Below are positions 45,027 to 62,783 of a stretch of 64,000 nucleotides of DNA, piece by piece. Positions within the stretch are counted from its first letter, which is position 1, and the number at the start of each line of letters is the position of its first letter. Under the pieces are notes generated by a model. It made no database searches. It was not told the origin of the DNA and saw nothing but the letters and a program-made list of their open reading frames with translations. The position numbers and the translations under genes are program-made. Origin of the DNA: Defluviicoccus sp. (GTDB taxonomy: Bacteria; Pseudomonadota; Alphaproteobacteria; MPNO01); the NCBI GenBank assembly GCA_022823775.1, contig JAJEHI010000048.1:42267-106266 (forward strand). The letters run 5' to 3'.

Positions 45027-46649
45027 TCAGTAAATCCGGCGGATCGTCCTCAGCTGTCTCGCAATATCCGAAAACGCCGCCCGGAGCGTTTCGGGGTCCC
45101 GGTTTTCCAGGAAAACGTATGTTCCATCCGGTTTTTCCGCCTCGCTGGAGCACGCGCGCAGCGCCGTTCCCAGGGTCCCGGATACATTGTCCGGATGCAT
45201 CGCCGCGATGACGAAGATCTCGGTCCCGGCGGCCTTCGCGGCGTTACACGCCACGGCGCGATCGATGCCGACATCGTTGGTCTCGCAAGCCGGATCGTTA
45301 AGCCCGCACGGGTTGTCCTCTCCGTCCGTAAGCAGCACGATCGCTTTTCGGGTACCGGCGTTGCCCGAAGCGTCGGTGTCTACCGGATGGACGCCGCCGC
45401 CCCATGCATCCGTCCAGGAATGCGACAGCAGCCTTTGCCCCCACAGGACCCCGAGCGTGGAATAGGTCCGGAATCCCACCGGCGCGAGCGAGTCGATCGC
45501 CGCGCGGACCGCCGCGGCGTCGGATGTCAGCGGCAGAATGGATGGAATGACGGTGCCGTCATACGGCGATGTGCAGCCTCTCTGGGCGGACGTGCGGTCG
45601 TAGACCCCCCGCAGGTCGGCGGGGTCGTCGCCGTAACAGACCTGGTAGTTGAAGTTGTCGGGCAGCGGCGACTGCAGGCACTCGTACGCCACCCCCTGTA
45701 CCGACGGGAAGATCGCTTGAGCGAAAGGGTGCGACGACGGGGGGGCGAGCAAATCGGAGACGGCGGGCAGGGACGCATGATCCCCCGGCCCGGAGATCCG
45801 ATGCTCGTCCAGGCAGCCCTGCCAGGTCTCGTCGAATGTGGGCGGGAGCGTGTGGTCGACATCGAAAGCCGTGCAATTGCCCTCCGGTCGGCACGCGTAG
45901 GAGGCGGCATAGTTGCGGCTTTGCGGGTATTTCGCCCAACCGTCGGCTGCCCAGCCGGCCTGCATCGTTGCCGGCAGCCGGACCAGGATGTGCCACGGCA
46001 CCAGCCCCACCGCCACCCGGCTTTCTTCGCGCGGATCGAGAATGTCGACCAGGTCGAGGGCTGCCTGCCTTACGATATTCATCCGGCTGGGATCCTCGCC
46101 CCAGGCCGGAGAGCCATCCAGCCCGTCCCGCATCGACGCGCTGATGTCGATGGCAAGCACCACCTCGACGGCGTTCCTGACACTCTCCACCGCGCTCTCC
46201 CGCGCCACCGGACCCGGTCCGGAATAGCCGAACAGCCGTTCGGATATCGCCGTCCGCCCGATATCCGCCTGGACCGACGCGCCGACCGTTCCCGCCGTCC
46301 GGTCGATATCCAGCGTCACCGAGATATCCCCGGCCTCCAGATCGGGGTCGTTCGTGTTTCCCAGGACGTTCAGAACGGCATATTTTCGCGCGACGGCCAT
46401 AAGCCGTTCCTCCACGTCGCCGTCGGACATGGAGCTCGGCAACCCGCTCAGTTCCAGCGTCGCGGACATCGACACGGCGTCGGCCGCGCTCTTCAGGAGA
46501 TCGCGCCGATCGACGAGCCGATCATGATCGACGATCACGGCCGCGCCGCCCACCGTCATGATGACGACCCCGATGGCGACATAAGCGGTCGCCGCGGCGC
46601 GCCTGTTGCGAAGAAAGCGGCGAACGGGGCGGGTCGAATTCCGGAACAT
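45027..46649 (-). CDS. tadG: TadG-like Flp-pilus assembly protein with von Willebrand factor A domain
   Basis: The N-terminal Tad-like membrane anchor is RRAAATAYVAIGVVIMTVGGAAVIV and the vWA region is VVLAIDISASM...IVLLTDGEDN. Confidence 0.7.
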   Translation of the reverse strand: MFRNSTRPVRRFLRNRRAAATAYVAIGVVIMTVGGAAVIVDHDRLVDRRDLLKSAADAVSMSATLELSGLPSSMSDGDVEERLMAVARKYAVLNVLGNTNDPDLEAGDISVTLDIDRTAGTVGASVQADIGRTAISERLFGYSGPGPVARESAVESVRNAVEVVLAIDISASMRDGLDGSPAWGEDPSRMNIVRQAALDLVDILDPREESRVAVGLVPWHILVRLPATMQAGWAADGWAKYPQSRNYAASYACRPEGNCTAFDVDHTLPPTFDETWQGCLDEHRISGPGDHASLPAVSDLLAPPSSHPFAQAIFPSVQGVAYECLQSPLPDNFNYQVCYGDDPADLRGVYDRTSAQRGCTSPYDGTVIPSILPLTSDAAAVRAAIDSLAPVGFRTYSTLGVLWGQRLLSHSWTDAWGGGVHPVDTDASGNAGTRKAIVLLTDGEDNPCGLNDPACETNDVGIDRAVACNAAKAAGTEIFVIAAMHPDNVSGTLGTALRACSSEAEKPDGTYVFLENRDPETLRAAFSDIARQLRTIRRIY

Positions 46650-46837: not shown

Positions 46838-48952
46838 TCAATAGTAGTAGCCGCCAACCAGCGCCGGGGCGGGTTCGTCCCGCTCTTCCGGAGACCCGCC
46901 GGTCCGGACCAGCCGGGCCGTGACGATCACCACCAGCTCGAGGTCCTCCGATCGTATCGAGCGATGCCCGAACAGCGGTCCCAGCAACGGGATGTCCTTG
47001 AACACCGGGAGGCCCGCCTCCCGCGTGTCGGACGCGTTGCGGAACAGCCCGCCTATCACGATCGAGTCTCCGTCGCCCACTTCGACCGTCGTCTCCGCGC
47101 GGCGCACGTTGATCACCGGGATATTGACGCCCACCACCTGGACCGCCTGGTTCAGCGACGGCTCCGACACTTCGGGCCTGACCTTCAGCACGATCCTGCC
47201 GGCGTCTATGACCGTGGGGACGAAGTCGAGCAGGACGCCGTATTTCTTGTATTCGAACAGGATGACCCCGTCCTCGAACCCGGTCGGCAGCGGGTATTCG
47301 CCACCCGAGAAGAACGACGCCGCCTCGCCCGACACGGCGGTGAGGTTGGGCCTGGCCAGCACGTTCGCCGAGCCGGCCCTGGCAAGCGCGTCGATCATGC
47401 CCGAGATGCGCGTGTCCTTCGTATGCCTGCCGAAGAAGAGACCGGGGGAGGGCTGACCGTCGACGAGTGACGGAGCGAAGGCGCCGATCGCGCTTCCCGC
47501 GACCGACGGGACGCTCGCCAGCCGGCCGATCCGGAAGCCGAACACGTTGTCGCCCGGGGTCCGGAATGCCTCCCAATTGATCCCGAGGTCCTCGCTGAGC
47601 GAGCGCTGGACCTCGGCGATCTGGACTTCAAGGCTCACCTGCTGCGCGCCGGCCACACGCAGTTCGGTTTCGACGACGGTGTCCTTCGGCAGAGCCGCCG
47701 CCGCGAGCCGGAGGGCGCGTTCGGCGAGAGCGGCGGAGGCGACATCGCCCGACAGCGCTATTCCCCGCGCGACCCGCCTCGCCCGTACGCCGCGCAGATC
47801 GGGCTCTCCGGCCAGGTTCGCACGAACGGGTTCGAGGTCGAGCATGACGGACACGATCCAGTCCCGCACCCGACCGTCCTCTCCGAGCACCGCGACGGAG
47901 GTTCTGCCGACGCTCTTGCCGACGATGTACAGCACGTCGGGCGATAGCAGCTGAACGTCCGCCACCTCGGGCGCCGCCACCAGCAGCGAGGTCGCGCTGG
48001 AATCGAGCCCGAGGCGCCTGCTCTGCCCCAGCGAAAGGGTCATCGTCGCCGGCAGGGGGACGCCCGGCGTTCGGTCCGCGGCCGCCTCCGCCTCCGGGAC
48101 CGGCGGCGCCTCCCGCTCCGTTCCGGGACCCTGCGGGGAGGGCCGTTCCGCAATGCGAAGCAGGGCGCCCGTGGACCCCGGCAGCGCCGCTTCGCGGGCC
48201 GCGGGGCCGTCCCCTTCCCGCGCCGGCAGACGCATCGCGAGGCTCGGATGGACCGCACGCGCCGCGGCCTGGCGCCGCCGCTCCCGCCGCGCTTCCTCGA
48301 TCAGATGCCACAGCGAAGAACCGTCCTCGCCCAGCCAGAAGGACGGATCGTGCCGCGCGTGAACCTCCGCCGCGCTCTCTTCCTTCCCGGCCGCCAGCAG
48401 CATGCGCACGAAATTCGCGGTGATCCCCGGATGGCCCGAAGACAGGCGGAGAGCCCGGCGGTATTCCGCCTCGGCCGTCTCGTAATCGCCTTCGAGGCTG
48501 GCGAGGACGCCGATGCCGTTGGCGACCCAGGCCGCCGAGGGCCCCCGTCCCGCCGATTCGCGCGCGCTCCCGAAGTGCCGCCGCGCGTCGTCCAGCGTGC
48601 CTTGGGCGAGCGCCGTCCGCCCCGCGCCGAGGAGCGCTTCCGCCTTGATGGCCGGCGCCTCCTCCGCCAGCGCCGCGGCCCCGAGGAAATAGTCCTTCGC
48701 GGCCGGCAGGTCGTTGTCGAGGGACGCGATATATGCCAGCCCGAGGAGCGGTTCGGGAGCCTCGTCGAAGCGTTCGGCCAGGGAGCGGTATAGCCTGCGG
48801 GCGACCGACGGCTGGCCCGCGGTAAAGGCGGCGGCCGCGACGGACAGGTTGTTTTCAAGAAGATCCTGGCGGCCGGCGGGATCGTCCGACGACGGGCCGG
48901 TCGCGCATGAGGCGACCGCCGCGACCGAGATGAAAACGGCAGCGGCGCGCAT
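46838..48952 (-). CDS. cpaC: CpaC/RcpA-type secretin fused to an N-terminal TadD-like TPR domain; lipoprotein signal
   Basis: Real start MRAAAVFISVAAVASC at 48952. The first ~270 aa are TPR-like. These are followed by the pilus-formation N-domain (LSLGQSRRLGLDSS...VLYIVGKSVGRTSV) and the secretin core (ARPNLTAVSGEAASFFSGGEYP...FKDIPLLGPLFG). Confidence 0.75.
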   Translation of the reverse strand: MRAAAVFISVAAVASCATGPSSDDPAGRQDLLENNLSVAAAAFTAGQPSVARRLYRSLAERFDEAPEPLLGLAYIASLDNDLPAAKDYFLGAAALAEEAPAIKAEALLGAGRTALAQGTLDDARRHFGSARESAGRGPSAAWVANGIGVLASLEGDYETAEAEYRRALRLSSGHPGITANFVRMLLAAGKEESAAEVHARHDPSFWLGEDGSSLWHLIEEARRERRRQAAARAVHPSLAMRLPAREGDGPAAREAALPGSTGALLRIAERPSPQGPGTEREAPPVPEAEAAADRTPGVPLPATMTLSLGQSRRLGLDSSATSLLVAAPEVADVQLLSPDVLYIVGKSVGRTSVAVLGEDGRVRDWIVSVMLDLEPVRANLAGEPDLRGVRARRVARGIALSGDVASAALAERALRLAAAALPKDTVVETELRVAGAQQVSLEVQIAEVQRSLSEDLGINWEAFRTPGDNVFGFRIGRLASVPSVAGSAIGAFAPSLVDGQPSPGLFFGRHTKDTRISGMIDALARAGSANVLARPNLTAVSGEAASFFSGGEYPLPTGFEDGVILFEYKKYGVLLDFVPTVIDAGRIVLKVRPEVSEPSLNQAVQVVGVNIPVINVRRAETTVEVGDGDSIVIGGLFRNASDTREAGLPVFKDIPLLGPLFGHRSIRSEDLELVVIVTARLVRTGGSPEERDEPAPALVGGYYY

Positions 48953-49254
48953 GCGCCGGACGAGATGTCGACATGGTTGCCGGATCACGAGCATTTCCAA
49001 TCCGGCCCCGTTGTCAGCGAACGAAGCACGACCGCTCCATCTTCCGTCAAGATTTCGAACCCGGGCGAAGAATGAACGCGGTTCCCGAATTCGATCCTAT
49101 CGATCCAGAGACCGCGAACCTGGGTGTATCCCCGCGATCCGGACGCTCGATCCGGCACCGCCGCAACCGGCGAACCCATAAGCGAACTTGGCAGAATATG
49201 CCTAACACGATATGAATTGTGAACAGAAGTGAGATATTTTGTCGCCCTCGCCCC

Positions 49255-49743
49255 ATGCGGAGGCGGCGTTGTTGCATCGCGCGGAAGGTTCTTTTCCGCG
49301 CGTCGTTTCGGAGACGATCCGTGTTCGAACCCGGGTGCCTGCGGCGGGGCATATTCGTCGCCGCGGCGTTTCTGCCGCTGTTGTTTTCGGCTGGATGCCA
49401 GCAACCCCTCGCCGTCCACGACCCGTATTTCAGGCCGGGCAACACGACTGCCGCTGCGCAAGGCGCCGAAGCGAGACGGGTCGTCAGATACCGCCGGGCG
49501 CTGCAGACCGCGCGGAGATCGTGTCCGACCGATGCGTCCGCCGAGGCCGGCACGCGGGACGGTCCGGTCCCGGCGGACAAGGCGGGCCGCGCGGCGCTCG
49601 CGGCGCTTTGCGCCGATTTGCGCGAGCCGTCCACGGCCGCGCATGGCGGGACCTCGAACGCCTATCGGCGGTGGGTGGAAGACAGGATCCGCGAGCTGCC
49701 GAAGGCGGCGGCGACCGGCGCCGGCGCCGCCGGCGGCTCATGA
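49255..49743 (+). CDS. Putative exported/lipoprotein (possibly a CpaD-like pilus assembly lipoprotein); start uncertain
   Basis: Signal-like segment GIFVAAAFLPLLFSAGCQQ. GC3 is very high in this frame; two other overlapping frames are also open (49229.., 49239..) and are judged spurious. Confidence 0.4.
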   Translation: MRRRRCCIARKVLFRASFRRRSVFEPGCLRRGIFVAAAFLPLLFSAGCQQPLAVHDPYFRPGNTTAAAQGAEARRVVRYRRALQTARRSCPTDASAEAGTRDGPVPADKAGRAALAALCADLREPSTAAHGGTSNAYRRWVEDRIRELPKAAATGAGAAGGS

Positions 49744-49788: not shown

Positions 49789-50919
49789 ATGGCGGCGTCT
49801 TCCAAGGCTCACTATGCGCGCGGGTTCGCGGCCGACGCCCGGACCGAGCGGGCATTGCGCGCCGGACTTGCCGGCCGCGACGCGAAGGTCCAGCGAGGAC
49901 GCCTGGAAATCGCGCTCCGCACTCTGGCGGCCGAGCCCGCCTCCAGTCTGGTGTTCGTCGACCTCGACGGCAATTCGGACCCGGAAACCGCGGCCAGGCG
50001 ACTGACCGAAGTTTGCCCTTTCGAGACTGCGGTGGTCGCGATCGGTTCCACCGATTCGGCGCGGTTCGGCCACGCGCTCCTGCAACAGGGGATGGCGGAC
50101 TATCTGGTCAAGCCGCTGTCGGCCGCGGTCGTGCGCGAGGCGGTCGCCGCCCTCAGCGGGGAGGCGCCCGAGCATCTCTACGCGGGAGACGTCATCGCTT
50201 TCGCGGGAAGCCCCGGCAGCGGCGTCTCCACCCTGGTCGCCGCGGTCGCGCACGCCGCCGCCGCCGACGGCCGCACCGCTTCCGTCGTCGACCTCGACCC
50301 GGTTTGCGGCAAGCTCTCCGCGCGGCTCGGCGTCGAACCCGGGGACGGCCTGCGCCCGCTCCTTGCTTCGATCGGCGCCGGCGCGGCCGATGACCCGGAC
50401 CCTCATATCGACCCCGACAGGATCGACCGAATATCGACGCCGGCGGCTTCCGGCATTTCGCTGATCGCTTACCCGAAGGCCGAGGCGCCGCCGGAAAGCG
50501 CCGACGCGGCGGCGCTCTCCGCCCTCTTCAGGCATCTCGCCAACCGGACCCATCTCGTGCTGGCGACCGGGATGCCGGATCCCGAGACGCAGCTTCTGCT
50601 GATGCGGGACGCCGATGCTCGGGTTCTGGTCTACGAACCGACGATAGCGAGCGTCGGCGCCGTGGTGCGTCGGTTGGCGCGGCTCGGCCCCGACCGGCCC
50701 GCCACGCTGGTCCAGTGCTCCACGCGGGGTCGCCGTTACACGCTGTCCTCCGCCCATGTCCGCTACGCGTTCGGCGACCGGCGCCCGGACGTCGTGCTTC
50801 CCTTCGATCCGGCGCTCCACGCGGCCGCCACCGGCAAGCCATCGGGCCGCCCGGGAAAGGCCTACCGCAAGGCGCTGCGCCAGGCGATAGAGCTGGTCGG
50901 ACAAGATCATCGTTCGTGA
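49789..50919 (+). CDS. cpaE: CpaE/TadZ-family pilus assembly protein (receiver-like N-domain + MinD/ParA-like domain), paralogue 1
   Basis: The receiver-like part is LVFVDLDG...ADYLVKPL. The deviant Walker A, IAFAGSPGSGVSTLVAA, lacks the conserved lysines. Confidence 0.7.
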   Translation: MAASSKAHYARGFAADARTERALRAGLAGRDAKVQRGRLEIALRTLAAEPASSLVFVDLDGNSDPETAARRLTEVCPFETAVVAIGSTDSARFGHALLQQGMADYLVKPLSAAVVREAVAALSGEAPEHLYAGDVIAFAGSPGSGVSTLVAAVAHAAAADGRTASVVDLDPVCGKLSARLGVEPGDGLRPLLASIGAGAADDPDPHIDPDRIDRISTPAASGISLIAYPKAEAPPESADAAALSALFRHLANRTHLVLATGMPDPETQLLLMRDADARVLVYEPTIASVGAVVRRLARLGPDRPATLVQCSTRGRRYTLSSAHVRYAFGDRRPDVVLPFDPALHAAATGKPSGRPGKAYRKALRQAIELVGQDHRS

Positions 50920-51306: not shown

Positions 51307-51849
51307 ATGCGGAGCGGGTGCGTGAACCGGATCGTCAGACATGGCTGGCTTGCAGCGCGGGACTTCTGGCGCGCCCGGCGCGCGGCGGTCGCGCTGGAAA
51401 CGGCGATCGCGGTGCCGGTTCTCCTCTTCGCGTTCGCGGGCCTGATGGAAATCGTGCACTCGGCCTATGTCAGCGACAACATGAACCGCGCCGCCCGCGC
51501 CGCCGCCCGAGCGATCGCGATCGCGCCGGACAGCGCGGCGGGTAGCGGCGCGCTCGACAGCGTCGCCTGCACGGCGATCCGGCGCGAACTCAAGCTGGTC
51601 GAGAGTTTCGACTGCGGCGCGAGCTGGACGCTCACGGTCGACACGGATCTCACTCCCGCCGCCTTGCTGGCCGGCGGAGACGGGGGCGACGGCGAGGCGG
51701 ACGGGGACATGGTGGTCGTGCGGATCGCCTGGAGCCGGGAGCCCTGGGAGATCGGCCAGCTCATCGCCTCGCTCGACGAGGGAGACGGCGAGCCCGACCG
51801 CCGGATCGCGGTCGGCGTCGCCCGCCGGGAACCGGTGGCGGGGAGCTGA
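51307..51849 (+). CDS. tadE: TadE/TadF-like pseudopilin-type protein
   Basis: The N-terminal TadE motif is AAVALETAIAVPVLLFAFAGLMEI; 180 aa. Confidence 0.65.
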   Translation: MRSGCVNRIVRHGWLAARDFWRARRAAVALETAIAVPVLLFAFAGLMEIVHSAYVSDNMNRAARAAARAIAIAPDSAAGSGALDSVACTAIRRELKLVESFDCGASWTLTVDTDLTPAALLAGGDGGDGEADGDMVVVRIAWSREPWEIGQLIASLDEGDGEPDRRIAVGVARREPVAGS

Positions 51850-51856
51850 TCCGCCC

Positions 51857-52528
51857 GTGACCGCGCTCCCGTCCCTCCCGCTCCGGTCCTTCGTCCGCGA
51901 CACGCGCGCCCTGGCCGGTATCGAGCTCGCGTTCGGATCCGTGGCGCTCGCGACGATCGCCACGCTGTGCTTCGACCTCTACTCGCTGGTCGGCGTCACC
52001 AGCGCCAGCGCGCGTAGCGCCGTCGCCATGGCGGAGTACGTTTCGCGCGACAGCGCCCCGGACGGGGATCAGGTGACGGCGCTGGGCCGGTTCCTGCACC
52101 GGGAGGAGTTCGGCGCCCCCGCCGATCTGGTCTACGTGATCTCCGCCGTCCGGCGTCCGCCGGGGGACGAGCCCGCGGAAGTCCTGTGGGTCGACGACAC
52201 GATCCGGTTCGGCGACTCCGCGACGACGGCGGCCCTCGCCGGCGAGTGCGCCCGCCGCGGCAGCGCGGGCTGGCGGGCCGGGCTGCTTGGCGCGCCGGGC
52301 TCCCTCGGCATGAGCGAGGGGGAGGTGGCGATCGTGGCCGAGGTCTGCGCGCGTCCCATGCGCGAGGGCATGCTTTCCGGCCGCCTGGTCACCGGAGACA
52401 TCTACCGCGTTCATATCCTGCCGTCCCGCGATCCCCGGCAGGCGCCAGAGCCGCCAGTCCATTCGACCTCGGCGGAGGACACGGACAGGACGGGCGCCGG
52501 TCCGCCGCACAAGGTTTCGATTTCATGA
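51857..52528 (+). CDS. tadF: TadE/TadF-like protein (second copy)
   Basis: GTG start; N-terminal LAGIELAFGSVALATIATLCFDLYS; 223 aa. Confidence 0.6.
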   Translation: MTALPSLPLRSFVRDTRALAGIELAFGSVALATIATLCFDLYSLVGVTSASARSAVAMAEYVSRDSAPDGDQVTALGRFLHREEFGAPADLVYVISAVRRPPGDEPAEVLWVDDTIRFGDSATTAALAGECARRGSAGWRAGLLGAPGSLGMSEGEVAIVAEVCARPMREGMLSGRLVTGDIYRVHILPSRDPRQAPEPPVHSTSAEDTDRTGAGPPHKVSIS

Positions 52529-52682: not shown

Positions 52683-52922
52683 ATGAATACTCGATTTGCA
52701 ACCCGCCTGTTCAGGCGCTTCGCGCGCGACAACAAGGCCGTCTCCGCCCTCGAATACGCCATCCTGGTGGGTGTCATCACCGCCGGCGTCGGCGCAGCCG
52801 TCGCGGCGTTCACGGACCAGATCGACGACATGATCGATCAAATCGCCACCAACGTGACCGCCAACGAGGCCAACATCGGCACCGGTGGCGCCGGCGGTGG
52901 CGGCGGCGACGCCGCCGAGTGA
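52683..52922 (+). CDS. flp: Flp/Fap-family type IVb pilin
   Basis: 79 aa. The Flp motif ...DNKAVSALEYAILVGVITAGVGAAV has G/A before the EY; the C-terminus is a Gly-rich acidic tail TGGAGGGGGDAAE. Confidence 0.75.
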   Translation: MNTRFATRLFRRFARDNKAVSALEYAILVGVITAGVGAAVAAFTDQIDDMIDQIATNVTANEANIGTGGAGGGGGDAAE

Positions 52923-53110
52923 TCGATACCGCCTGGAGCGCCGGTCGCCGTGCCCTCGGGGCGGCGGCCGGCGCGGCTGTCCCGCTACCGTAACGGACAT
53001 GGCCGCCCCCGGCTCCGGGCGGCCGTTTCCGGCATCCGGCGGGCCTGACCGCGGGTCCTCCGGATTTTCGGGGCCGCGGCCGAACCGGTTCCTTTCCGAA
53101 AAAGCCCACA

Positions 53111-54612
53111 ATGACTCTCGACGCTTCTCCGAACGGCCGCGATCGTCCGGCCGGGCCTCCCCCGGAACGCGCGCCCGACTTCGACCTCGATTTCGACGTC
53201 GATTTCGAGGCCCTGCTGCGGGCCGGGCTTCCGGACGATCCGGGCGAGGGCGAGGACGCCACCGCCGCCGACCTGGCGAGCGCTCTCTCCGCCGGCCCCT
53301 TGGACGATCCATCTCCGCCGCCGGCCGATCCGGACCTGCCCGACCTCGCGGACCTTTCCGGCATCGCGGCGGACCTGCCGGGTCCGGGCGCCGCGATCGA
53401 CGCCGGCAGCGATGAGGACGCGGACGACACGGCTTCCGAGTCGACGCCCGAAGGTCCCGCCGCCGCGCTCGCCTTCGCGGCCGATGCGGAGACCGAGAAC
53501 GCCCTGCGCGAGGGTCTGATGCATTTCGAAGGGGCGATGCCGGACTGCGACGATCCCCAGGTTTGGCCGGGCGGCCTGCGAGCGGCCGTCGCGGCGCTCG
53601 CCGACGGGCATTCCTCCGGTCTCGTCATCGTCGATATCGACGGTATCGCCTACCCGTCGGGCGCCATTCACGAGCTTGCCGAGGTCTGCGAGATCGGAAC
53701 CGTCGTCATCGCGGTCGGCTCGAACGGCACCGCCCGTTTCAGCCGCGAAATATTGCTTGCCGGGGTCAGCGACTATCTGGTGAAGCCGCTCACCCCGCAG
53801 ACGGTGAGGGAGGCGACACGCCGCGCGGCCGCGTCCCGGGCGGACGCCCCCGCGAGGGGATGCGTCGCCGGGTTCGCCGGCACCGGCGGCAGCGGCGCGA
53901 CCACCCTGGCGGTGGCGACCGCGCTCCATGCGGCGGAGACCGGCCGTTACGTTTCTGTGCTCGATCTGAACCGGACCGTCCCCGTCGCGGCGCTTCTGCT
54001 CGACGTGCAGCCGGCGGCCGGGCTGGAACAGGTCATCGAGGTCGCCGGCGACGCGCCGCTCGAGGCAAACACGCTGGACGGCGTCCGGGCGCAGCGCTCC
54101 GAGCGGGTATCGATCTACGCCTATCGCTGGTCTCCCGTGCTGCCCCCGGCGCCGTCGGGCCCGGCGCTCGCCCGCCTGCTGGGCGAACTGAAGAGCCGGT
54201 CCCAGCTCGTGCTCGTCGACGGGATCGACGATCCGCCGACCCAATTCGCCCTGCTGTCCGAGGTCGATGTCCCCGTTCTGGTGGCGGAACCGACGGCGGA
54301 CGGCGCAACCCGCGCGGCCCGTATGCTGGAGCTTCTCCCCGGCGACGCCCCGGCCGTCGCGGTGAAGAACCACACGCGCGCGTTCCGGCCGGACGCGGGG
54401 GCGCGGGCGCTCGTCGACGCCGGGATGGAGGCCGCGCCGGACATCCTGGTTCTGTACCTTCCGTCGCTGCCGGAAATCGCCGACCGGGGCTGGCCGCGCG
54501 GCAGGCTTCCCCGCCGCTTGCGCAAGCCCGTCGCGAGCCTTCTCGAACGGATCCTCGCATCGGCCCGCCTCGCCCGTGTCGTCCCGGACGGGCGCCTCGC
54601 GGAGGCGGCGTG

Positions 54613-54613
<1 letters not shown>
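53111..54613 (+). CDS. cpaE: CpaE/TadZ-family protein, paralogue 2, with a ~140-aa acidic/Pro-rich N-terminal extension
   Basis: The receiver-like region is LVIVDIDG...SDYLVKPL. The MinD-like domain has the Walker A-like GFAGTGGSGATTLAVA, again without lysine. Confidence 0.7.
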
Positions 54614-56006
<1,393 letters not shown>

Positions 56007-56010
<4 letters not shown>

Positions 56011-56966
56011 CGCACTTCCTGATCGTCGTGGGCACGGCCCTGGTGGCGACGCTGCCCGGGGTCGCCTTCCTGCTGCTGCTGTGGAACCGCGACCGGCGGT
56101 TGCGCGGCCGGCTTCAGGGCGCGTCCGCTTCGCATATCGACGAGGCGGTCTCCGAGGACGATGCGACCGAGGCCATCGTCTTTCGCTCCTCGGCCGGATC
56201 GCGGTCGGCTCGCCTCCGGCGCGCGATCGAGAGCCGGTATCCCCTGCTCGACGCCCGGCGGGCGGTTCCGCGCGCGGTTCTCGCGGGCGGCGCGGCGGCG
56301 GCCGGCCTGTGGGTTTCGATGTGGTTCCTGAAGATCCCCTCCGGCTGGTGGACGATGCCCCTCGTCGGGTTGGGCGGCGTGGGCGGCATCTGGTACGCGC
56401 TGTCGTGGTTTCACTCGCGGCAGGCGACCGAGTTCACCCGCCAGTTCCCCGAAGTCATCGACCAGATCGTGCGGCTATCCGCGGCGGGGCTGCCCGCGCT
56501 TGAGGCGATCCCTGTCGCCGCCGAAGACGCCCGGGCGCCCGTCAAGCCGGTGCTGAACGCCGTCTGCGACGGGCTTAGCGGCGGGCTCGATCCCGACACC
56601 GCTCTTCGAACTGTCGCCACCCGCGTCCGCCTCGCGGACTTCACCTTGTTCGCCGCGGTGATACTGCTGCAGCGCCGCGCCGGCGGCGGTATCTCCGCCG
56701 CGTTCGCCACCCTCTCCCGCACGCTTCGCGATCGTCGCAACACCGCGCTGAAGGCGCAGACATCCACCGCGCAGACCCGCCTGACCCTTATGGTGCTGTC
56801 CGTGATGCCGGTGGTGATGCTCAGCATCCAGAAGTTCATCTCGCCCCAATCCGCCGCGATCCTCTTCGAGACCGAACGGGGGACGACCCTCCTGCATTGG
56901 GGCGTCGGCCTGATCGTCGCCGGCCTTCTGGTCGCGAAGGCTATCGCTTCGCGCGTCGAGCAATAG
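56007..56966 (+). CDS. tadB: TadB (T2SS-F-domain inner-membrane platform protein)
   Basis: GTG start overlapping the cpaF stop (GTGA); 319 aa with a T2SSF domain. Confidence 0.8.
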
Positions 56967-56983
56967 GGAAGGGCGGGCCTCTC

Positions 56984-57955
56984 ATGCAGAACGCCTTCAT
57001 ACCGGTCGCCGGACTCGTCCTGGGCGCCGCCTACGTGCTGCTTCTCGCGCCGCTGATTATCCGGGAAACGCGGCGGGCGCAGCAAATGGACAGGCGGTTG
57101 ACCGCGTTGCGCGATTCCCCGTTCGGCTACGCCGCCGGACACGCGGCCCGCGACGGCGGCCGGGGCAAGGCCCTGATCAGGGCGCTCGGCCTGACGGCCA
57201 TGCGTGTGGCGTCGATGCTGGTCCCGATCGGCGCGGCCGAGCGCGAGAAACTCACCCGCATGCTCCGCGCGGGCGGCTTCGGGCAGCACGAAGCGCTCTC
57301 CGTTTTCCTCTCCGCGAAGCTCGGCGGCGCGTTCCTCCTCGCCATCGGCGCCGGGCTCTGGGCGACCTCTTCGGAGACGGTCGGACAGCACGCGTTTCTC
57401 GCCCTGTTCGCCGCGCTGGCGGGCTTCGTGATCGGCGGTGTCATCCCGGAATACGTGCTGCGTGCGCTGGTGGCCCGAAGGCTGCAACGGATGACCGCGG
57501 TCCTGCCCGACGCGCTGGACATGCTGGTGATGTGCCTCGAATCCGGCCTGACGGCGGAACGGGGAATCCTGACGGTCGCCGACACGCTGGCGCCCATCGA
57601 GCCCAATCTCGCCAGGGAGTTCCAGCAGATCGAGGCGGAGCTGCGGGTCGCGTCGGACCGCCGCGCGGCGCTCACCGAGTATTACCGGCGCACGGAGATC
57701 GACGGTCTGCGCGACCTCGTGATGGCGCTCATACAGGGCGACCGGTACGGCACCCCGCTGTCCCAGTCGATGAAGAACATCGCGGCCGACGAACGGATGC
57801 AAAAGGCGGCGCGCATCGCGACCCAGGCCGAGCGCCTGCCGGTCCTGATGACCCTGCCGATGATCATTCTCGTGGTTCCCGGAACCATGCTCCTGGTGGC
57901 GGGCCCCGCCGTTCTGGGCGCGCTTACCGGGCTGGCAAAAATGAGTGGCGGATAG
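56984..57955 (+). CDS. tadC: TadC (T2SS-F-domain inner-membrane platform protein)
   Basis: Start MQNAFIPVAGLVLGAAYVLL; 323 aa with a T2SSF domain. Confidence 0.8.
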   Translation: MQNAFIPVAGLVLGAAYVLLLAPLIIRETRRAQQMDRRLTALRDSPFGYAAGHAARDGGRGKALIRALGLTAMRVASMLVPIGAAEREKLTRMLRAGGFGQHEALSVFLSAKLGGAFLLAIGAGLWATSSETVGQHAFLALFAALAGFVIGGVIPEYVLRALVARRLQRMTAVLPDALDMLVMCLESGLTAERGILTVADTLAPIEPNLAREFQQIEAELRVASDRRAALTEYYRRTEIDGLRDLVMALIQGDRYGTPLSQSMKNIAADERMQKAARIATQAERLPVLMTLPMIILVVPGTMLLVAGPAVLGALTGLAKMSGG

Positions 57956-57956
57956 G

Positions 57957-58943
57957 ATGTACAAGACGCGCGGTCGCTCTTCCGCCGGACGGGCGGTTTC
58001 CCTGCTTGCCACTTTGGCCGCGGGCCTCACGTGGCTCGCCTGCGGCGATCTCCGCGCCGAGGAGCCGATCCTGCCGATCCCCGAAAATGTCGACGTCGAT
58101 CCGGCCAAGGTCGAGCTGGGCCGAAAGCTGTTCCACGACCCGATATTGTCGAAGGACGGCACGATCTCCTGCGCTAGCTGCCACGATCTGGCGGGCGGCG
58201 GCGATGACGGCCGCAAGATTTCGCTCGGCGTCGACGACAAGCCGGGAATGGTCAACTCGCCCACCGTGTTCAACGCGGGCATGAACTTCAAGCAGTTCTG
58301 GGACGGCCGCGCGAGCACGCTCGAGCATCAGATCGACGGTCCGGTGCAAACCGCCTTCGAGATGGGCAGTCTCTGGCCGGACGTCGTCGCCAAGCTCTAC
58401 CGCGACGGCGCCTATCCCAAGCTCTTCAAGAAGAGCTATCCCGACGGGATCAATCGCAAGAACGTCAAAAACGTCATCGCCGAGTTCGTAAGGTCCCTCA
58501 ACACTCCCAACAGCCGCTTCGACCGGTGGCTGAAAGGCGACAAGAACGCTCTCAACGCGCAGGAAAAGCGCGGCTACGCATTGTTCAAGGACTATGGCTG
58601 CTCGTCGTGCCACCAGGGCGCGAACGTCGGCGGGAACATGTTCCAGGTGTTCGGCGTCCTGAACGACTACTTCAAGAAACGCGGCAACATCACGGAAGCC
58701 GATCTGGGCCGCTACAACATCACCGGAAACGAAGAAGACCGGCACGCCTTCAAGGTTCCCAGCCTGCGGATGGCGGCGATGACGGCACCCTATCTGCATG
58801 ACGGAAACGCGGCCACGCTCCGCGACGCCGTCGACGCGATGTTCGAATTTCAACTGGGGCGCGAAGCCCCCGACAAGGACAAGGAAGCCATCGTGGCGTT
58901 CATCGAGACGCTGGTGGGCGAATCCAAGGAGCTATCGAAATGA
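57957..58943 (+). CDS. ccpA: Di-haem cytochrome c peroxidase (CcpA/MauG family), periplasmic
   Basis: Two CxxCH haem motifs (CASCHD, CSSCHQG), a signal peptide, and the conserved FKVPSLRMAAMTAPYLHDG. The track begins at a GTG at 57945; the ATG at 57957 is preferred. Confidence 0.85.
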   Translation: MYKTRGRSSAGRAVSLLATLAAGLTWLACGDLRAEEPILPIPENVDVDPAKVELGRKLFHDPILSKDGTISCASCHDLAGGGDDGRKISLGVDDKPGMVNSPTVFNAGMNFKQFWDGRASTLEHQIDGPVQTAFEMGSLWPDVVAKLYRDGAYPKLFKKSYPDGINRKNVKNVIAEFVRSLNTPNSRFDRWLKGDKNALNAQEKRGYALFKDYGCSSCHQGANVGGNMFQVFGVLNDYFKKRGNITEADLGRYNITGNEEDRHAFKVPSLRMAAMTAPYLHDGNAATLRDAVDAMFEFQLGREAPDKDKEAIVAFIETLVGESKELSK

Positions 58944-60733
58944 GGTCTGGCGCAGTCATTCTCGGCATTGCCGTCTCCGCCGTCCTGCTGGCCGTCGCGG
59001 GCGGTCTTTATGTGCTGGCGGGCAATAACAGCGGAGACGGTTATCGCAAGGCGATCGATCTCGTGCGGCAGATCCAGCTGCTGTCGTCGGAATGGAGCAT
59101 GGAAGTCACGCGCGTGAAATCCGATCAGTTCGCCGATTTCGACTCGCTGGCCGCCTTCCTGCCGCGCATGGCGCGGCTGAAGGACGAGCTTGCCGACACG
59201 GCCCAGCGCATCCCCCAACTTCCCGACCGGATCGCCAGCGACATGCAGGCCTATCTCAACGCGATCGAAGCGAAGGAAGAGCGCATAGAACGCTTCAAGA
59301 CGGGCTACGCCGTGGTGCGCAACTCCAACCGCTACCTGCCGCTGGCCGCGACCAACGTCCTGCAGCAGGCGCAGAACTCGAGGGACGACGCGCTGGTCCG
59401 GAATATTTCGAGCCTGATCCGGGATGTGAACCTCTATCTCGCCACGCCGACGGACACGTCCCAGTCCCGGCTGACCGCCGAGATCAAGAAGCTCCGCGAA
59501 TCCAGCGTCTCCTATCCGCCTCCGCTCGCCAACGCGCTGGCCAATCTGTTCTCCCACGCCGAGGTGCTTGTGGCCAAGCAGGGGCCGACGGAGGAGCTGT
59601 TCAAGAGGGCCACGTCCGGCGAAGTCTCCGACCTGACGGAGCAGCTGAGCAGCAATCTGCAGTTCGAGCTCGGCAAGAAGGTGCTCCTCGCGACCTATTA
59701 CGACCGGGGCATTCTCGTGGTGTTCGCCGCGCTGATCCTGTTCTGGATCCTGCTCGCGCTGCAGCAGCGGATTCGCGGCGGCTCCGCCGTGACCCGGGTC
59801 GCTTCCCGCCCCTCGGCGATCGAGATCGCACCCGCGCCCGCCGGCGCCGGGGAGGCCGTCGTCGCGGCGGAGGAGACGCATCCGGCGCCGGTGCGGCCCG
59901 CGCCCGTCGAGGCGGAAGCCATCCGTCTGCCCGACGAACCCGAATCCCTGCCCGTCGCGGCGGCGGCTTCGTCCCCGGAACCGAGCGCCGAATCCATCCT
60001 GATGCAAGGGTTCGTCGTCAAATGCGTGGCCGGAATCATGGCCGCCTCGGCCGACGAAATCGCCGGCCGCATGGAGTATCTGCGCCGAACCCAGAACAGG
60101 ATCCAGGACGCCTTCCGAAACAGCGACGGTATCGCGGAAACGTCCGATGGAACGGATGTCGACGAAGAGATCGAAACGATCTCCGCCATCGCGCTGAGCG
60201 TCCGCCAGAGGATGAACGGCATCGCCGATCTCGCGAAGCGGCTCGACTCCTATTCCAACGGTCACGCCAACGGGGCGGACCGCGGAATGATCGACCTCAA
60301 CGCCTGTGTCGAGAACGTCATCGAGACCGCCGGTGCCGCGAACCGGGCGACGGTCGTGAGGAACCTGGGCGACATCCCGGAGATATTCGCCTCCAGGACC
60401 GAATTTCAGCTGCTCCTGTCGGAACTGATCGACAACTCGATGGTCGCGGTCGAGGGACTCGACGACAGAAAGGGCATCATCAAGATCGATACCGCGCGGA
60501 AGAACGACGAAATCCTGATCACCGTCATCGACAATGGCGACGGTATCGCCCCCGACAAGCGCGCGAACATCTTCAAGCCGTTCTACACGTCCCGCGACGG
60601 GGCGATGGGCATCGGCCTGACCCTCGCCGGTCACCTGGTCAAGAAATACGAGGGGGTCATCAAGATCAATTCGTTGCCCGGCCAGGGGACGGTGGCGCGC
60701 GTCACGCTGCCGGCCGGCGTGTCGGGGGCGTAG
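58940..60733 (+). CDS. Membrane sensor histidine-kinase-like protein (two TM helices, periplasmic domain, C-terminal HATPase_c); no canonical H-box recognised
   Basis: N-box LLLSELIDNSMVA, G1 DNGDGI, F FKPFYT, G2 GMGIGL. TM1 AVILGIAVSAVLLAVAGGLYV and TM2 ILVVFAALILFWILLAL. The ATG overlaps the ccp stop. Confidence 0.65.
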   Translation: MRSGAVILGIAVSAVLLAVAGGLYVLAGNNSGDGYRKAIDLVRQIQLLSSEWSMEVTRVKSDQFADFDSLAAFLPRMARLKDELADTAQRIPQLPDRIASDMQAYLNAIEAKEERIERFKTGYAVVRNSNRYLPLAATNVLQQAQNSRDDALVRNISSLIRDVNLYLATPTDTSQSRLTAEIKKLRESSVSYPPPLANALANLFSHAEVLVAKQGPTEELFKRATSGEVSDLTEQLSSNLQFELGKKVLLATYYDRGILVVFAALILFWILLALQQRIRGGSAVTRVASRPSAIEIAPAPAGAGEAVVAAEETHPAPVRPAPVEAEAIRLPDEPESLPVAAAASSPEPSAESILMQGFVVKCVAGIMAASADEIAGRMEYLRRTQNRIQDAFRNSDGIAETSDGTDVDEEIETISAIALSVRQRMNGIADLAKRLDSYSNGHANGADRGMIDLNACVENVIETAGAANRATVVRNLGDIPEIFASRTEFQLLLSELIDNSMVAVEGLDDRKGIIKIDTARKNDEILITVIDNGDGIAPDKRANIFKPFYTSRDGAMGIGLTLAGHLVKKYEGVIKINSLPGQGTVARVTLPAGVSGA

Positions 60734-62262: not shown

Positions 62263-62745
62263 GTGGAGAGCCGTTCGATGGCGAACGCAACCGCATGGAT
62301 CGTCTGGCTGGCGGGGTGGGCCGCATGCGGCCTGTTCGTCGCCGCCGCGGTCAGCGACCTTCGGACCCGCCAGGTGTCGAACGCGATACCCCTGCTGCTG
62401 CTCGGGCTTTTCGCGGTGTACGCGGCGGCCGGCGCGGTCCGGCCCGCAACGTCGCTCTGGCAGCATCTGGCGATAGGCGCCGTACTGCTCGCCGCCGGTT
62501 TCGCGCTCTACACGACCGGTCGCTTCGGCGGGGCCGATGCGAAGCTGATCGCCGTGGCGGGGTTGTGGGCCGGTCCGAACGACCTGGCGGCGTTCCTGTT
62601 CGTTCTGGGCGGGTGCGCTTTGTTGCTGAGCCTGTATGCCTTGCTGCCTCACGCGGGGGCGCGGCGTCTGCGGTCGGAACTTCCCTTCGCCCTGGCGATC
62701 GCGCCGCCGAGCCTGGCGGTCATCGTCCCGCGCGCGCTGCCATGA
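62263..62745 (+). CDS. cpaA: Prepilin peptidase CpaA/TadV (A24 family)
   Basis: 160 aa polytopic membrane protein; the catalytic Asp contexts are AAVSDLRTRQVSN and GGADAKL. Confidence 0.75.
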   Translation: MESRSMANATAWIVWLAGWAACGLFVAAAVSDLRTRQVSNAIPLLLLGLFAVYAAAGAVRPATSLWQHLAIGAVLLAAGFALYTTGRFGGADAKLIAVAGLWAGPNDLAAFLFVLGGCALLLSLYALLPHAGARRLRSELPFALAIAPPSLAVIVPRALP

Positions 62746-62783
62746 CGTCCCCGGGACGGCGCTAGAACGGGAGATCTTCCCCG

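Follow-up and report, generated by a model that had tools for sequence, protein, structure and literature searches.

One gene in the analysed DNA, a stretch of 64,000 nucleotides referred to here as the window, encodes a lipoprotein signal peptide, a TPR domain and an RcpA/CpaC-type secretin in a single reading frame within a Tad pilus locus. To our knowledge, the pilotin-type TPR lipoprotein is a separate polypeptide from the secretin in every studied system, and a description of the fused TPR-secretin form was not found in the literature. We consider it rather probable that the gene encodes a Tad secretin with a built-in pilotin.

Reading frame and domain layout of the fused gene

The gene is a single uninterrupted ORF of 704 codons on the minus strand, which corrects the earlier note with respect to the strand. 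Translation of the reverse strand over 46838-49000 contains zero internal stops. From the ATG at 48952 the product has 704 aa and the N-terminus MRAAAVFISVAAVASC; an alternative upstream ATG at 48994, at which a Met is conserved in relatives, would add 14 residues (718 aa), and the mature fused protein is identical for both starts. From the N-terminus, the product consists of the following parts, listed after the gene itself.

46838-48952, minus strand: fused lipoprotein-TPR-secretin gene, a continuous ORF with Pfam TPR_19, T2SS-T3SS_pil_N and Secretin
48905-48952, minus strand: signal peptide with lipobox V-A-S-C (Cys16) and Ala at +2, read from the sequence; lipidation predicted
48251-48880, minus strand: TPR domain, residues 25-234, 11 helices, predicted PilW/PilF/TadD-like fold
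48053-48250, minus strand: disordered Ala/Pro/Arg-rich linker, residues 235-300 (pLDDT 23-37)
47846-48049, minus strand: pil_N (N0-like) beta domain, residues 302-369 (Pfam PF13629)
47651-47833, minus strand: single BON-like or N1 alpha-beta domain, residues 374-434 (weak Pfam BON)
46904-47389, minus strand: secretin core domain of RcpA/CpaC type, residues 522-683 (Pfam PF00263)
46841-46855, minus strand: tail G-G-Y-Y-Y (family motif G-Y-[YH]-[YF]-COOH), candidate ligand of the TPR groove

The lipobox-like N-terminus described in the earlier note is found as VASC, with the Cys kept in 75 of 80 fused homologues and nearly invariant as a column across the TPR family; the +2 residue is never Asp in the fused homologues. 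Towards the other end, T2SS-T3SS_pil_N (PF13629) matches residues 302-369 with 59.3 bits (cut-off 23; AF2 pLDDT about 88), BON matches residues 376-434 weakly (pLDDT 80-87 for the N1 domain), and Secretin (PF00263) matches residues 522-683 with 138.3 bits (cut-off 27.5). The secretin core is of low confidence in the AF2 monomer model, as expected, and its top PDB match is RcpA (8odn_A, E = 1.1e-37). By its PF00263 and PF13629 matches, and with RcpA as its closest solved relative, the C-terminal part is a Tad secretin of the RcpA/CpaC type, a type that forms gated outer-membrane channels of 13-14 subunits.

GC3 in the frame of the ORF is 0.80-0.93, and this coding signal is kept across the junction between the TPR and secretin parts. 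At this junction neither alternative frame offers a start codon with a signal peptide. The earlier note had claimed an in-frame fusion of a TPR region with the pilus N-domain and the secretin core and had proposed to check it by domain parsing and by a search for a frameshift. Both bear it out: TPR, pil_N and Secretin are parsed within one continuous frame, no two genes are joined, and a separate signal peptide is missing from the secretin part.

The closest database match, P0020, has 704 aa, is 97% identical and shares the architecture. The architecture also recurs in nearly all of the best 120 matches of a full-length search (660-1015 aa, from uncultured bacteria), and a genome scan found the fused architecture as a single ORF in 15 species-representative genomes. 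Clustered at 50% identity, the proteins matching the TPR profile at E <= 1e-30 form 54 clusters, 19 of which hold the fused form; the largest proteins of the family reach 2815 aa. The fused form is thus widespread, with conservation across hundreds of uncultured bacteria, which answers the question of phylogenetic distribution raised at the outset. The name given in the databases, 'pilus assembly protein N-terminal domain-containing protein', hides the fused architecture.

Because the architecture recurs in P0020, in about 120 best matches and in the 15 genomes, chance and assembly error are excluded, and the fused TPR-secretin ORF is confirmed as real rather than a frameshift artefact. It is hardly conceivable that an indel from sequencing or assembly, or decay to a pseudogene, merged an upstream tadD-like gene with a secretin gene. 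Such a merger would fit the outcome of a search with the N-terminal 273 residues, where the matches listed were only 'stand-alone' TPR proteins (19, of 193-475 aa), as well as four contigs (L002, L018, L068 and L069) on which the TPR and secretin parts lie in different frames. The full-length search and the genome scan overturned the view of a unique or artefactual fusion. Several of the matches to the N-terminal search have out-of-frame tails and come from contigs labelled with 2x or 3x coverage, labels that the names of L002 and L068 carry. The called products on L002, L068 and L069 end in Arg-rich tails that appear to be out of frame, the secretin frame of all four contigs is without a signal peptide, and a single ORF is present on L008, which agrees with L002 in its N-terminal sequence.

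The TPR domain, the linker and the C-terminal tail

The model of the TPR domain (pLDDT 92) has 11 helices, the number reported for TadD (PMC10499894). It displays the traits of the pilotin class, about 5-6 TPRs (11-13 helices) in a crescent with a PilF-like fold, and among solved structures its fold is closest to two secretin pilotins, PilW and PilF. As modelled, the TPR domain shows the fold of the type IV pilus and Tad pilotins. In sequence the resemblance is weaker. Pfam TPR_19 matches residues 154-197 with 33.6 bits (cut-off 25), and TPR_12/TPR_16 match residues 104-175 under the cut-off. Compared with the PDB, the sequence profile finds PilF at E = 2.3e-7 and TadD at E = 1.3e-4, with designed and eukaryotic TPR proteins scoring above both; among the natural bacterial matches PilF and TadD rank best. 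NCBIfam PilW aligns end to end, signal peptide included, with 23.9 bits, far under its cut-off of 154 bits. Among the residues of the odd-numbered helices, R112 and N145 are invariant and N180 and R183 nearly so; N145 is a candidate counterpart of D139/Asn in TadD.

A TPR region is hence present, as the earlier note had it, but its extent of ~270 aa is reduced to a folded domain of ~210 aa (residues 25-234), the rest (235-300) being disordered linker. The label TadD-like is borne out by the lipoprotein signal and by the gene context of stand-alone homologues, while the similarity to TadD itself is marginal (E = 1.3e-4). As the domain is fused to a secretin in one ORF, we refer to it as a pilotin-like domain and not as a TadD protein.

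The linker holds short conserved L-x-[LM]-R-[LI] motifs in the consensus of the homologues. Measured between the positions of residues 222 and 306 of the window protein, it is 40-244 aa long in 80 homologues, and a hydrophobic signal-like run was found in 0 of these 80. Its length appears to follow the number of N1 domains between pil_N and the core, of which the window protein has one copy and relatives have 3 to 28 in tandem: the medians are 78, 104 and 135 aa at 1, 3 and 4 copies and 400-485 aa at 12-23 copies, a trend that includes few independent lineages and carries no phylogenetic correction. A tether that spans the distance between the outer membrane and the foot of the N1 stack would have to lengthen in this way as copies are added.

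Alternatively, the linker might be a site of processing, so that the protein, made as one chain, would be cut in the periplasm into a free TadD-like lipoprotein and a free secretin with classical two-protein behaviour. The length, disorder and poor overall conservation of the linker would suit such a polyprotein, as would the split versions with the same parts in L001 and L007, and co-export as one chain could bring the signal-less secretin part across the inner membrane. However, a protease site or a dedicated protease is not evident, the linker has several short conserved motifs and not one conserved cleavage site, and its scaling with the N1 number would be pointless if the tether were cut. 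We therefore judge cleavage to be very unlikely.

The motif G-Y-[YH]-[YF] ends 79 of 80 fused homologues and also the secretin of the split form L001. In the full-length AF2 model the last four residues have a mean pLDDT of 71, while residues 683-698 lie below 50. In P. aeruginosa, secretin assembly requires the four C-terminal residues of RcpA, which bind in the groove of TadD (PMC10499894). On the analogy with RcpA and TadD, a contact between tail and groove is a candidate here, and we infer that the tail would sit in the TPR groove. The two tails differ in sequence, as RcpA ends in ..L-S-D and the fused family in the aromatic G-Y-[YH]-[YF]. For the Binatia loci with a separate TPR protein, the fetched flanks contain a single secretin fragment, which is truncated ahead of the C-terminus.

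The Tad locus and the distribution of fused and split forms

The window contains the Tad core genes for Flp pilin, TadV, RcpC, TadZ, TadA, TadB, TadC and TadE/F, arranged as a divergent operon and a second cluster at 62.3 kb. Around the fused gene, the following features were assigned.

45027-46649, minus strand: VWA-like (TadG-like) protein, 540 aa, downstream of the fused gene (weak VWA matches)
49219-49743, plus strand: ORF of a small conserved lipoprotein, lipobox ..FSAGC; true start internal, mature part about 115 aa
49789-50919, plus strand: CpaE/TadZ-like ATPase 1 (NCBIfam CpaE_hom_Actino, 1.1e-10; syntenic in relatives)
51307-51849, plus strand: TadE-like minor pilin (Pfam TadE, 26.1 bits)
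51857-52528, plus strand: TadF-like protein, the second TadE-like gene, assigned by position and synteny (no Pfam match)
52683-52922, plus strand: Flp-type pilin, 79 aa (Pfam Flp_Fap, E = 1.6e-4, under the cut-off; motif ..SALEYAILVGV..)
52994-54613, plus strand: CpaE/TadZ-like ATPase 2 (NCBIfam CpaE_hom_Actino, 4.4e-6)
54700-56010, start approximate, plus strand: CpaF/TadA ATPase (Pfam T2SSE, 205 bits; NCBIfam TadA family, 9.6e-95)
55638-57955, plus strand: TadB and TadC platform proteins (Pfam T2SSF in both), ORFs 55638-56966 and 56897-57955 with true starts later within each
57945-60733, plus strand: di-haem cytochrome c peroxidase and DAHL-domain histidine kinase (Pfam)
62263-64000, plus strand: prepilin peptidase (62263-62745; Pfam Peptidase_A24, 56 bits) and RcpC/CpaB (62784 onward; 131 bits), RcpC being cut off by the window end

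Several neighbours recur in relatives. The VWA-like gene keeps its place after the fused gene in L005, L006, L013, L014, L016 and L017, and in Binatia loci it follows the TadE/TadF-like genes. The small lipoprotein, which is non-TPR and has no Pfam match, is conserved from its Cys onward in at least 18 relatives (tblastn), and its gene lies just upstream of the CpaE-like gene where the fetched region covers both. The pair of cytochrome c peroxidase and DAHL kinase travels with this Tad subtype, and two Binatia loci, L023 and L024, also have it beside their Tad genes; on L068, parts of the DAHL kinase are present with no called peroxidase.

A look-up of the prepilin peptidase in the protein database did not find an exact match. 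In relatives, genes for a ~565-aa protein and for another, distinct TPR(+SPOR) protein follow in the operon of prepilin peptidase and RcpC, so a second, unrelated TPR protein probably lies just past the window end. This second protein was considered as the real TadD but is not the better candidate: its 367-aa version in L001 is not significantly similar to the fused domain, and the 60 PDB entries that match it best in sequence include neither PilF nor TadD. The claim that the locus has no separate tadD stands within the 64-kb window, where the TPR profile, which also detects generic TPR proteins, matches the fused ORF only. It is qualified by the RcpC operon, which exceeds the window, and by the presence of the small non-TPR lipoprotein.

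True split forms of the TPR and secretin parts were found in L001 and L007. L001 has a stand-alone TPR lipoprotein of 257 aa, whose gene overlaps the start of the secretin gene by 4 bp, and its secretin has its own signal peptide and a GYHY tail. In the canonical order, tadD precedes tadE-tadF-tadG. The stand-alone TPR gene of L024 is in this tadD position, directly before the TadE, TadF-like and VWA/TadG-like genes. The same TPR lipoprotein occurs in Binatia and Thermodesulfobacteriota, where its fusion partner is not a secretin but SPOR domains, which bind peptidoglycan. When the secretin parts are placed in a neighbour-joining tree, the true split forms L001 and L007 do not group together but fall at separate places between fused and frameshifted ones, and so this crude tree favours an ancestral fusion with later fissions. 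The single-ORF architecture, the lipobox Cys and the C-terminal motif are conserved in many lineages, and the reading of the earlier note, a fusion compatible with function, is supported.

Proposed mechanism and comparison with known systems

In the preferred reading, that of a secretin with a built-in pilotin, the protein would be exported by Sec, acylated at Cys16 and cut by signal peptidase II. Lol would then deliver it to the inner leaflet of the outer membrane, as expected by the E. coli rule from Ala at +2 and the lack of Asp at this position in the family. The TPR modules may ring the secretin barrel, one per subunit, like TadD around RcpA. The concave groove, assumed to be lined by the odd-numbered helices with R112, N145, N180 and R183, would probably clamp the extreme C-terminal aromatic tail of its own or a neighbouring subunit, which would promote and stabilise assembly of the multimeric channel. 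The Ala/Pro-rich linker would act as the tether from the membrane-anchored TPR domain back to pil_N at the periplasmic base of the channel, and the fusion would ensure 1:1 stoichiometry and co-targeting. Speaking against this reading are the different tail sequence of RcpA, the dispensability of CpaO in Caulobacter, the small conserved lipoprotein in the locus and the second TPR(+SPOR) protein of relatives.

The closest known counterpart is the RcpA-TadD secretin-pilotin complex of the P. aeruginosa Tad system (PDB 8ODN; Tassinari et al. 2023, PMC10499894). The machine type is shared, with Flp pilin, TadE/F-like proteins, TadZ-like ATPases, TadA, TadB, TadC, prepilin peptidase and RcpC, and both secretins end in a short conserved tail, the four C-terminal residues of RcpA being those that bind TadD. 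In contrast to TadD, the predicted pilotin is N-terminal in the same polypeptide, on a disordered tether of 40-244 aa, and the secretin part is without a signal peptide. PilW of Neisseria (PDB 2VQ2) and PilF of P. aeruginosa (PDB 2FI7/2HO1) are lipoproteins of similar size with 14-16% identity to the TPR domain, but they are separate proteins that serve PilQ, the type IVa pilus secretin, in another class of pilus; PilF is reported to bind PilQ differently from the way TadD binds RcpA (PMC10499894).

In the liposecretins HxcQ (P. aeruginosa) and BfpB (EPEC), the secretin itself opens with a lipoprotein signal peptide, as predicted here. These proteins are thought to reach the outer membrane via Lol without a separate pilotin. 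As far as we know, a lipid anchor is all they have, with no pilotin-like TPR domain. Their systems are T2SS and T4bP, whereas the fused protein belongs to a Tad system and has a TPR domain of 210 aa.

Such TPR-less lipidated secretins also leave room for a different division of labour, in which the N-terminal lipid anchor alone would pilot the secretin and the TPR domain would bind a partner other than the tail, as a docking or alignment platform at the outer membrane. Candidate partners would be peptidoglycan-associated factors, RcpC, the VWA/TadG-like protein, the ~565-aa protein and the small lipoprotein. The SPOR-fused TPR lipoproteins of Binatia and Thermodesulfobacteriota suggest a general role as envelope scaffold, the small conserved lipoprotein of the locus could be the real assembly factor, and secretin assembly in Caulobacter does not depend on CpaO, the orthologue of TadD (PMC13170226). 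On the other hand, the closest solved folds are those of secretin pilotins, the split form L001 shows the classic arrangement of a pilotin gene that adjoins and overlaps a secretin gene, and the secretin tail is as conserved as the invariant polar residues of the odd-numbered TPR helices, as would be expected of a receptor and its ligand. Overall, an adaptor role of the TPR domain appears somewhat unlikely.

The Caulobacter system, with its secretin CpaC, the lipoprotein CpaD and dispensable CpaO (PMC13170226), is likewise an alphaproteobacterial Tad system in which the secretin is accompanied by outer-membrane lipoproteins. Its peptidoglycan-binding partners parallel the SPOR-fused TPR homologues of other phyla. 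In Caulobacter, though, the TPR protein is separate, unneeded and outside the complex, whereas here it is a covalent part of every subunit. As the Caulobacter machine lacks CpaO and can do without it (PMC13170226), a TPR lipoprotein encoded in a Tad locus need not be a pilotin, and TPR pilotins may not be general among Tad systems.

Taken together with the tether and the neighbouring genes, the built-in pilotin could be one element of a distinct, undescribed kind of Tad system in uncultured Proteobacteria of marine or symbiont type. Its secretin would form a lipid-anchored 'tethered ring' with 1-28 N1 domains and a matched tether, the cis-pilotin would remain at the outer membrane, and the peroxidase/DAHL-kinase sensor and a private small lipoprotein would be wired in. 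The largest members, with proteins of up to 2815 aa, would build conduits far longer than a normal periplasm. We put this wider reading forward as speculative and, as a whole, unlikely; if it were true, the family would offer a natural set of variants for studying the measurement, stacking and piloting of secretin channels.

Delivery of secretins to the outer membrane and their assembly there is a long-studied question, and the mechanism of the Tad pilotin, TadD clamping the RcpA tail, was solved only in 2023 (PMC10499894). The fused gene is a single-gene construct for the expression of what may be a self-piloting Tad secretin, the natural split variants (L001 and L007) and the fused ones form a matched set for comparing piloting in cis and in trans, and the G-Y-[YH]-[YF] tail is a clear candidate ligand. 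For the lineage itself, a natural and widely conserved fusion that joins a PilW/PilF/TadD-like lipoprotein domain covalently to an RcpA-type secretin speaks for a lasting structural partnership at a 1:1 ratio.

The fused reading frame and its relatives

On the minus strand of the window (G+C ~69%), positions 46838-49000 form one open frame with no internal stop, giving a product of 704 aa if the ATG at 48952 is the start. The N-terminus reads MRAAAVFISVAAVASC-ATGPSS; its signal peptide is short, carries positive charge and hydrophobic residues, and ends in the lipobox V-A-S-C, with Ala at +2. Translation from an upstream ATG (48994) would add 14 residues and leave the mature protein identical, and as the Met at this site is kept in relatives, it may be the true start.

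Domains of the fused protein (Pfam matches, and pLDDT of the full-length model)
Residues 25-234: TPR domain, pLDDT ~90
Residues 104-175: TPR_12 / TPR_16, Pfam, below cut-off
Residues 154-197: TPR_19, Pfam 33.6 bits, above cut-off
Residues 235-298: linker without secondary structure, pLDDT 23-37
Residues 302-369: T2SS-T3SS_pil_N, Pfam 59.3 bits
Residues 302-370: pil_N beta domain, pLDDT ~88
Residues 374-433: alpha/beta N1 domain, pLDDT 80-87
Residues 376-434: BON, Pfam, weak
Residues 436 onward: secretin core, pLDDT low, as expected of a monomer
Residues 522-683: Secretin, Pfam 138.3 bits

GC3 stays at 0.80-0.93 across the TPR/secretin junction, neither alternative frame there offers a start codon with a signal peptide, and the secretin part has no signal peptide of its own. 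Since open frame, Pfam domains, GC3 and alternative frames agree, the continuous in-frame fusion at 46838-48952 claimed in the earlier note is confirmed, with no frameshift joining two genes; its strand is corrected to minus. The proposed ~270-aa TPR region needs amending: TPRs are present, but the folded part comprises ~210 aa and is followed by a linker of ~65 aa. There is hardly any doubt that the lipoprotein-TPR-secretin architecture itself is real.

A query with the N-terminal 273 aa returned at least 19 proteins among the matches listed, all called as stand-alone TPR proteins; on their contigs the TPR gene lies immediately 5' of the secretin gene. The first impression from this query, that the fusion is an unusual case, was overturned by full-length and species-genome searches. 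The full-length query found 384 proteins at E <= 1e-20, and TPR, pil_N and Secretin occur together in nearly all of the best 120 of them (660-1015 aa); P0020, with 704 aa, is 97% identical. The sole name given by any source to the fused homologues, 'pilus assembly protein N-terminal domain-containing protein', is uninformative about the fusion. When one genome per GTDB species was scanned with the TPR-domain alignment, 65 loci came up, which were sorted by tblastn according to the TPR and secretin frames. Both parts share one ORF and frame in 15 (L003-L006, L008-L010, L012-L014, L016, L017, L019, L033, L065), from MAGs labelled Alphaproteobacteria (Thalassobaculaceae, Defluviicoccus) and Gammaproteobacteria (Ectothiorhodospiraceae), and seven further loci contain much longer fused ORFs. 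Exhaustive HMMER searching of 1.84 billion cluster representatives yielded 54 clusters matching the TPR profile at E <= 1e-30, namely 19 secretin fusions, 6 SPOR fusions and 29 TPR-only clusters, many of them fragments.

Of 80 fused homologues, 75 retain the lipobox Cys (the others are N-terminally truncated or unclear), none has Asp at +2, and 79 end in G-Y-[YH]-[YF]. Their Ala-, Pro- and Arg-rich linkers, between window residues 222 and 306, measure 40-244 aa (median 92), and a signal-peptide-like hydrophobic run was found in none of the 80. Cleavage of the linker to release two proteins appears very improbable. From the database, cluster and homologue surveys, which document the phylogenetic spread of the fused form, we conclude that the fusion is a genuine, conserved architecture; an artefact is refuted by the conserved single-ORF form in relatives and has a negligible probability.

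Separate genes do occur. At L001, on a 309-kb contig, the genes of a 257-aa TPR lipoprotein (lipobox LIAC) and a 722-aa secretin share 4 bp, the stop of the former running into the start of the latter. The secretin of this locus bears a Sec signal peptide of its own (MSATRGPRTRCGSASAFAGVLLLSGAAASA) and an extended Pro-rich repeat region; this is a true split, and L007 is similar. At L002, L018, L068 and L069 a signal peptide is missing from the secretin frame. On L002, L068 and L069 the called products have Arg-rich, out-of-frame-looking ends, and two of the four contig names carry 2x/3x coverage labels; these apparent splits look like indel errors or pseudogenes. The frame changes break the gene within the linker (Pro-rich in L018) or farther downstream (L068). 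From such broken genes gene callers produce truncated 'stand-alone' TPR proteins, by which homology searches are misled on architecture. A crude neighbour-joining tree built on the secretin parts does not make L001 and L007 sisters, each grouping with frameshifted and fused forms. At the resolution of this tree, an ancestral fusion in the Alpha/Gammaproteobacterial group followed by at least two fissions is somewhat favoured; repeated fusion, by a deletion that takes out the stop codon together with the signal-peptide stretch, would be an equally simple molecular event.

The TPR domain and the surrounding Tad locus

AlphaFold2, run on the TPR-domain alignment, predicts 11 helices for residues 25-227 (pLDDT 92). 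TadD, the separate pilotin of the P. aeruginosa Tad system, is reported with 11 helices, H1-H10 forming five TPRs (PMC10499894). By Foldseek the model matches the type IVa pilus pilotin PilF with TM-scores of 0.72/0.73, the highest mutual TM-score among the matches listed. A profile of 58 family members has PilF (2.3e-7) and TadD (1.3e-4) as top natural bacterial matches, with designed consensus TPRs and eukaryotic TPR proteins outscoring both, and NCBIfam PilW aligns end to end (residues 8-232 with 4-224 of 234) at 23.9 bits, the cut-off being 154. The domain thus matches the pilotin class in predicted fold, size and lipoprotein character, while by sequence it is no more than a candidate member. 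Across the wider TPR family R112 (H5) and N145 (H7) are invariant and N180 and R183 (H9) nearly so, all on odd-numbered helices.

MAGs of Binatia and Thermodesulfobacteriota encode stand-alone or SPOR-fused TPR homologues that are 41-47% identical. One set of these genes adjoins prepilin peptidase, RcpC, TadC, TadB and CpaF, a second TadE, TadF-like and VWA/TadG-like genes. At L024 the order is TPR, TadE, TadF-like, TadG-like, so that the TPR gene occupies the tadD place in the canonical order tadD-tadE-tadF-tadG. This gene context supports a Tad role of the whole family. Such lipoproteins (L023-L062, e.g. L036 5857-7830 and L059 5491-7626; proteins P0014-P0016) lie inside Tad loci; the SPOR-fused ones carry one to three C-terminal SPOR (peptidoglycan-binding) domains in place of the secretin.

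Features of the Tad locus in the window
48053-48250, minus: linker of the fused gene, residues 235-300
49219-49743, plus: small lipoprotein ORF
49789-50919, plus: CpaE/TadZ-like ATPase
52994-54613, plus: second CpaE/TadZ-like ATPase
57945-58943, plus: di-haem cytochrome c peroxidase (CCP_MauG)
58802-60733, plus: DAHL-domain histidine kinase
62263-64000, plus: prepilin peptidase, and RcpC, which is truncated at the edge of the window

A VWA/TadG-like gene follows the fused gene on the same strand. Divergent from it are the small lipoprotein ORF, the first CpaE/TadZ-like gene, TadE, TadF-like, the Flp pilin, the second CpaE/TadZ-like gene, CpaF/TadA, TadB and TadC. This layout recurs in the closest relatives, L003, L005 and L006; in L004 the TadE-to-CpaF genes lie on the opposite side of the secretin gene. 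The absence of a separate tadD holds within the 64-kb window, as a TPR profile broad enough to pick up generic TPR proteins finds nothing in any further ORF of at least 70 aa. In many relatives, as at L001 (5159-9874, minus strand), the peptidase-RcpC operon extends to two more genes: one for a conserved ~565-aa protein that belongs to no known family, the other for a TPR protein of 300-410 aa in which a weak SPOR domain is seen. The equivalent here would fall past position 64000. No similarity to the fused TPR domain is detectable in this second TPR protein, whose best 60 PDB sequence matches include neither PilF nor TadD.

The small lipoprotein (lipobox ..LFSAGC, mature part ~115 aa, no Pfam match) has counterparts in at least 18 relatives, with conservation beginning at the Cys (identity of 70% in L003 and of 41% in L001); its gene lies directly 5' of the CpaE/TadZ-like gene wherever the fetched region includes both. 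It may be an RcpB/CpaD-like or small pilotin-like secretin partner. The peroxidase/DAHL kinase pair also stands beside Tad genes in the distant Binatia loci L024 (2664-5598) and L023 (6542-9807), while L068 (665-2844) has parts of the kinase and lacks a called peroxidase. The recurrence of the pair suggests that this Tad subtype has a conserved regulatory module for redox or peroxide sensing. Ahead of its predicted cleavage site (..NKAVSALEY..) the Flp prepilin does not have the Gly that is usual there.

The secretin part, the linker and N1 repeats

The nearest solved relative of the secretin part is RcpA of P. aeruginosa (8odn_A, E 1.1e-37), and a second RcpA-like secretin, 8jvb, is also near. 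In the full-length model the last four residues reach a pLDDT of 71, those at 683-698 less than 50. Two short motifs of the type L-x-[LM]-R-[LI] (SLAMRL, ALLRIA) are conserved in the otherwise variable linker; similar motifs follow the secretin's own signal peptide in L001 and L007, repeated in the latter, and may, judged by sequence, be docking strands. The linker lengthens with the number of N1 copies between pil_N and core (Spearman 0.38, p 4e-6, kinship ignored).

Linker length by N1 copy number
1 copy: 104 proteins, median 78 aa
3 copies: 24 proteins, median 104 aa
4 copies: 3 proteins, median 135 aa
12-23 copies: 7 proteins, 400-485 aa

Complete lipoprotein-TPR-secretins of 1707, 2691 and 2815 aa contain 9, 25 and 28 tandem N1/BON-like domains. 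These giant versions (L063 7914-12428; L011, L015, L020, L021, L022, L028, L035; P0141, P0142, P0153) repeat, with a period of ~192 nt or 64 aa, the domain of which the window protein has one copy (residues 374-434); in P0142 Pfam finds TPR, pil_N, BON (388 bits) and Secretin. More than 20 stacked ring domains would exceed a normal periplasm in length. Being hard to square with it, the giant relatives are the more surprising material and merit separate study.

A candidate cis-pilotin

In P. aeruginosa, TadD is lipidated at Cys17 and forms a ring around the secretin in which each RcpA subunit is matched by one TadD; its concave groove, lined by H3, H5, H7, H9 and H11, binds the final four residues of RcpA, and their removal abolishes secretin assembly (PMC10499894). 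Here, in contrast, a lipoprotein domain of the TadD/PilF/PilW fold is covalently joined to an RcpA-type secretin, and where RcpA has its four-residue TadD ligand, this protein ends in an aromatic tail that is strongly conserved. The fused TPR domain probably pilots its own secretin in cis. After Sec export and lipidation, Lol would deliver the protein to the outer membrane; the TPR modules would surround the secretin barrel, each groove clamping the C-terminal G-Y-Y-Y either of its own subunit or of a neighbour, and the disordered linker would loop back from the membrane-proximal TPR to pil_N at the base. TPR 'carboxylate clamps' bind C-terminal peptides, and the proposed tail clamping is likened to these. 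The tail pLDDT of 71 and the linker/N1-copy trend fit the cis-pilotin picture indirectly.

Alternatively, the lipid anchor would do the piloting and the TPR domain bind some other partner. The SPOR-fused TPR homologues, the extra small lipoprotein in the locus and the dispensability of CpaO in Caulobacter (PMC13170226) count for this reading, which we regard as rather unlikely.

Mechanistically, the cis-pilotin candidate is an expected type of gene fusion. Its parts are known: the RcpA/CpaC secretin and the PilF/PilW/TadD-type TPR lipoprotein, and secretins with a lipid anchor (HxcQ and BfpB, for example) are known as well. Openly available full-text literature yielded no account of a secretin fused to a TPR pilotin. 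The covalent joining of these parts is the new element, and a real and useful finding for research on secretin assembly.
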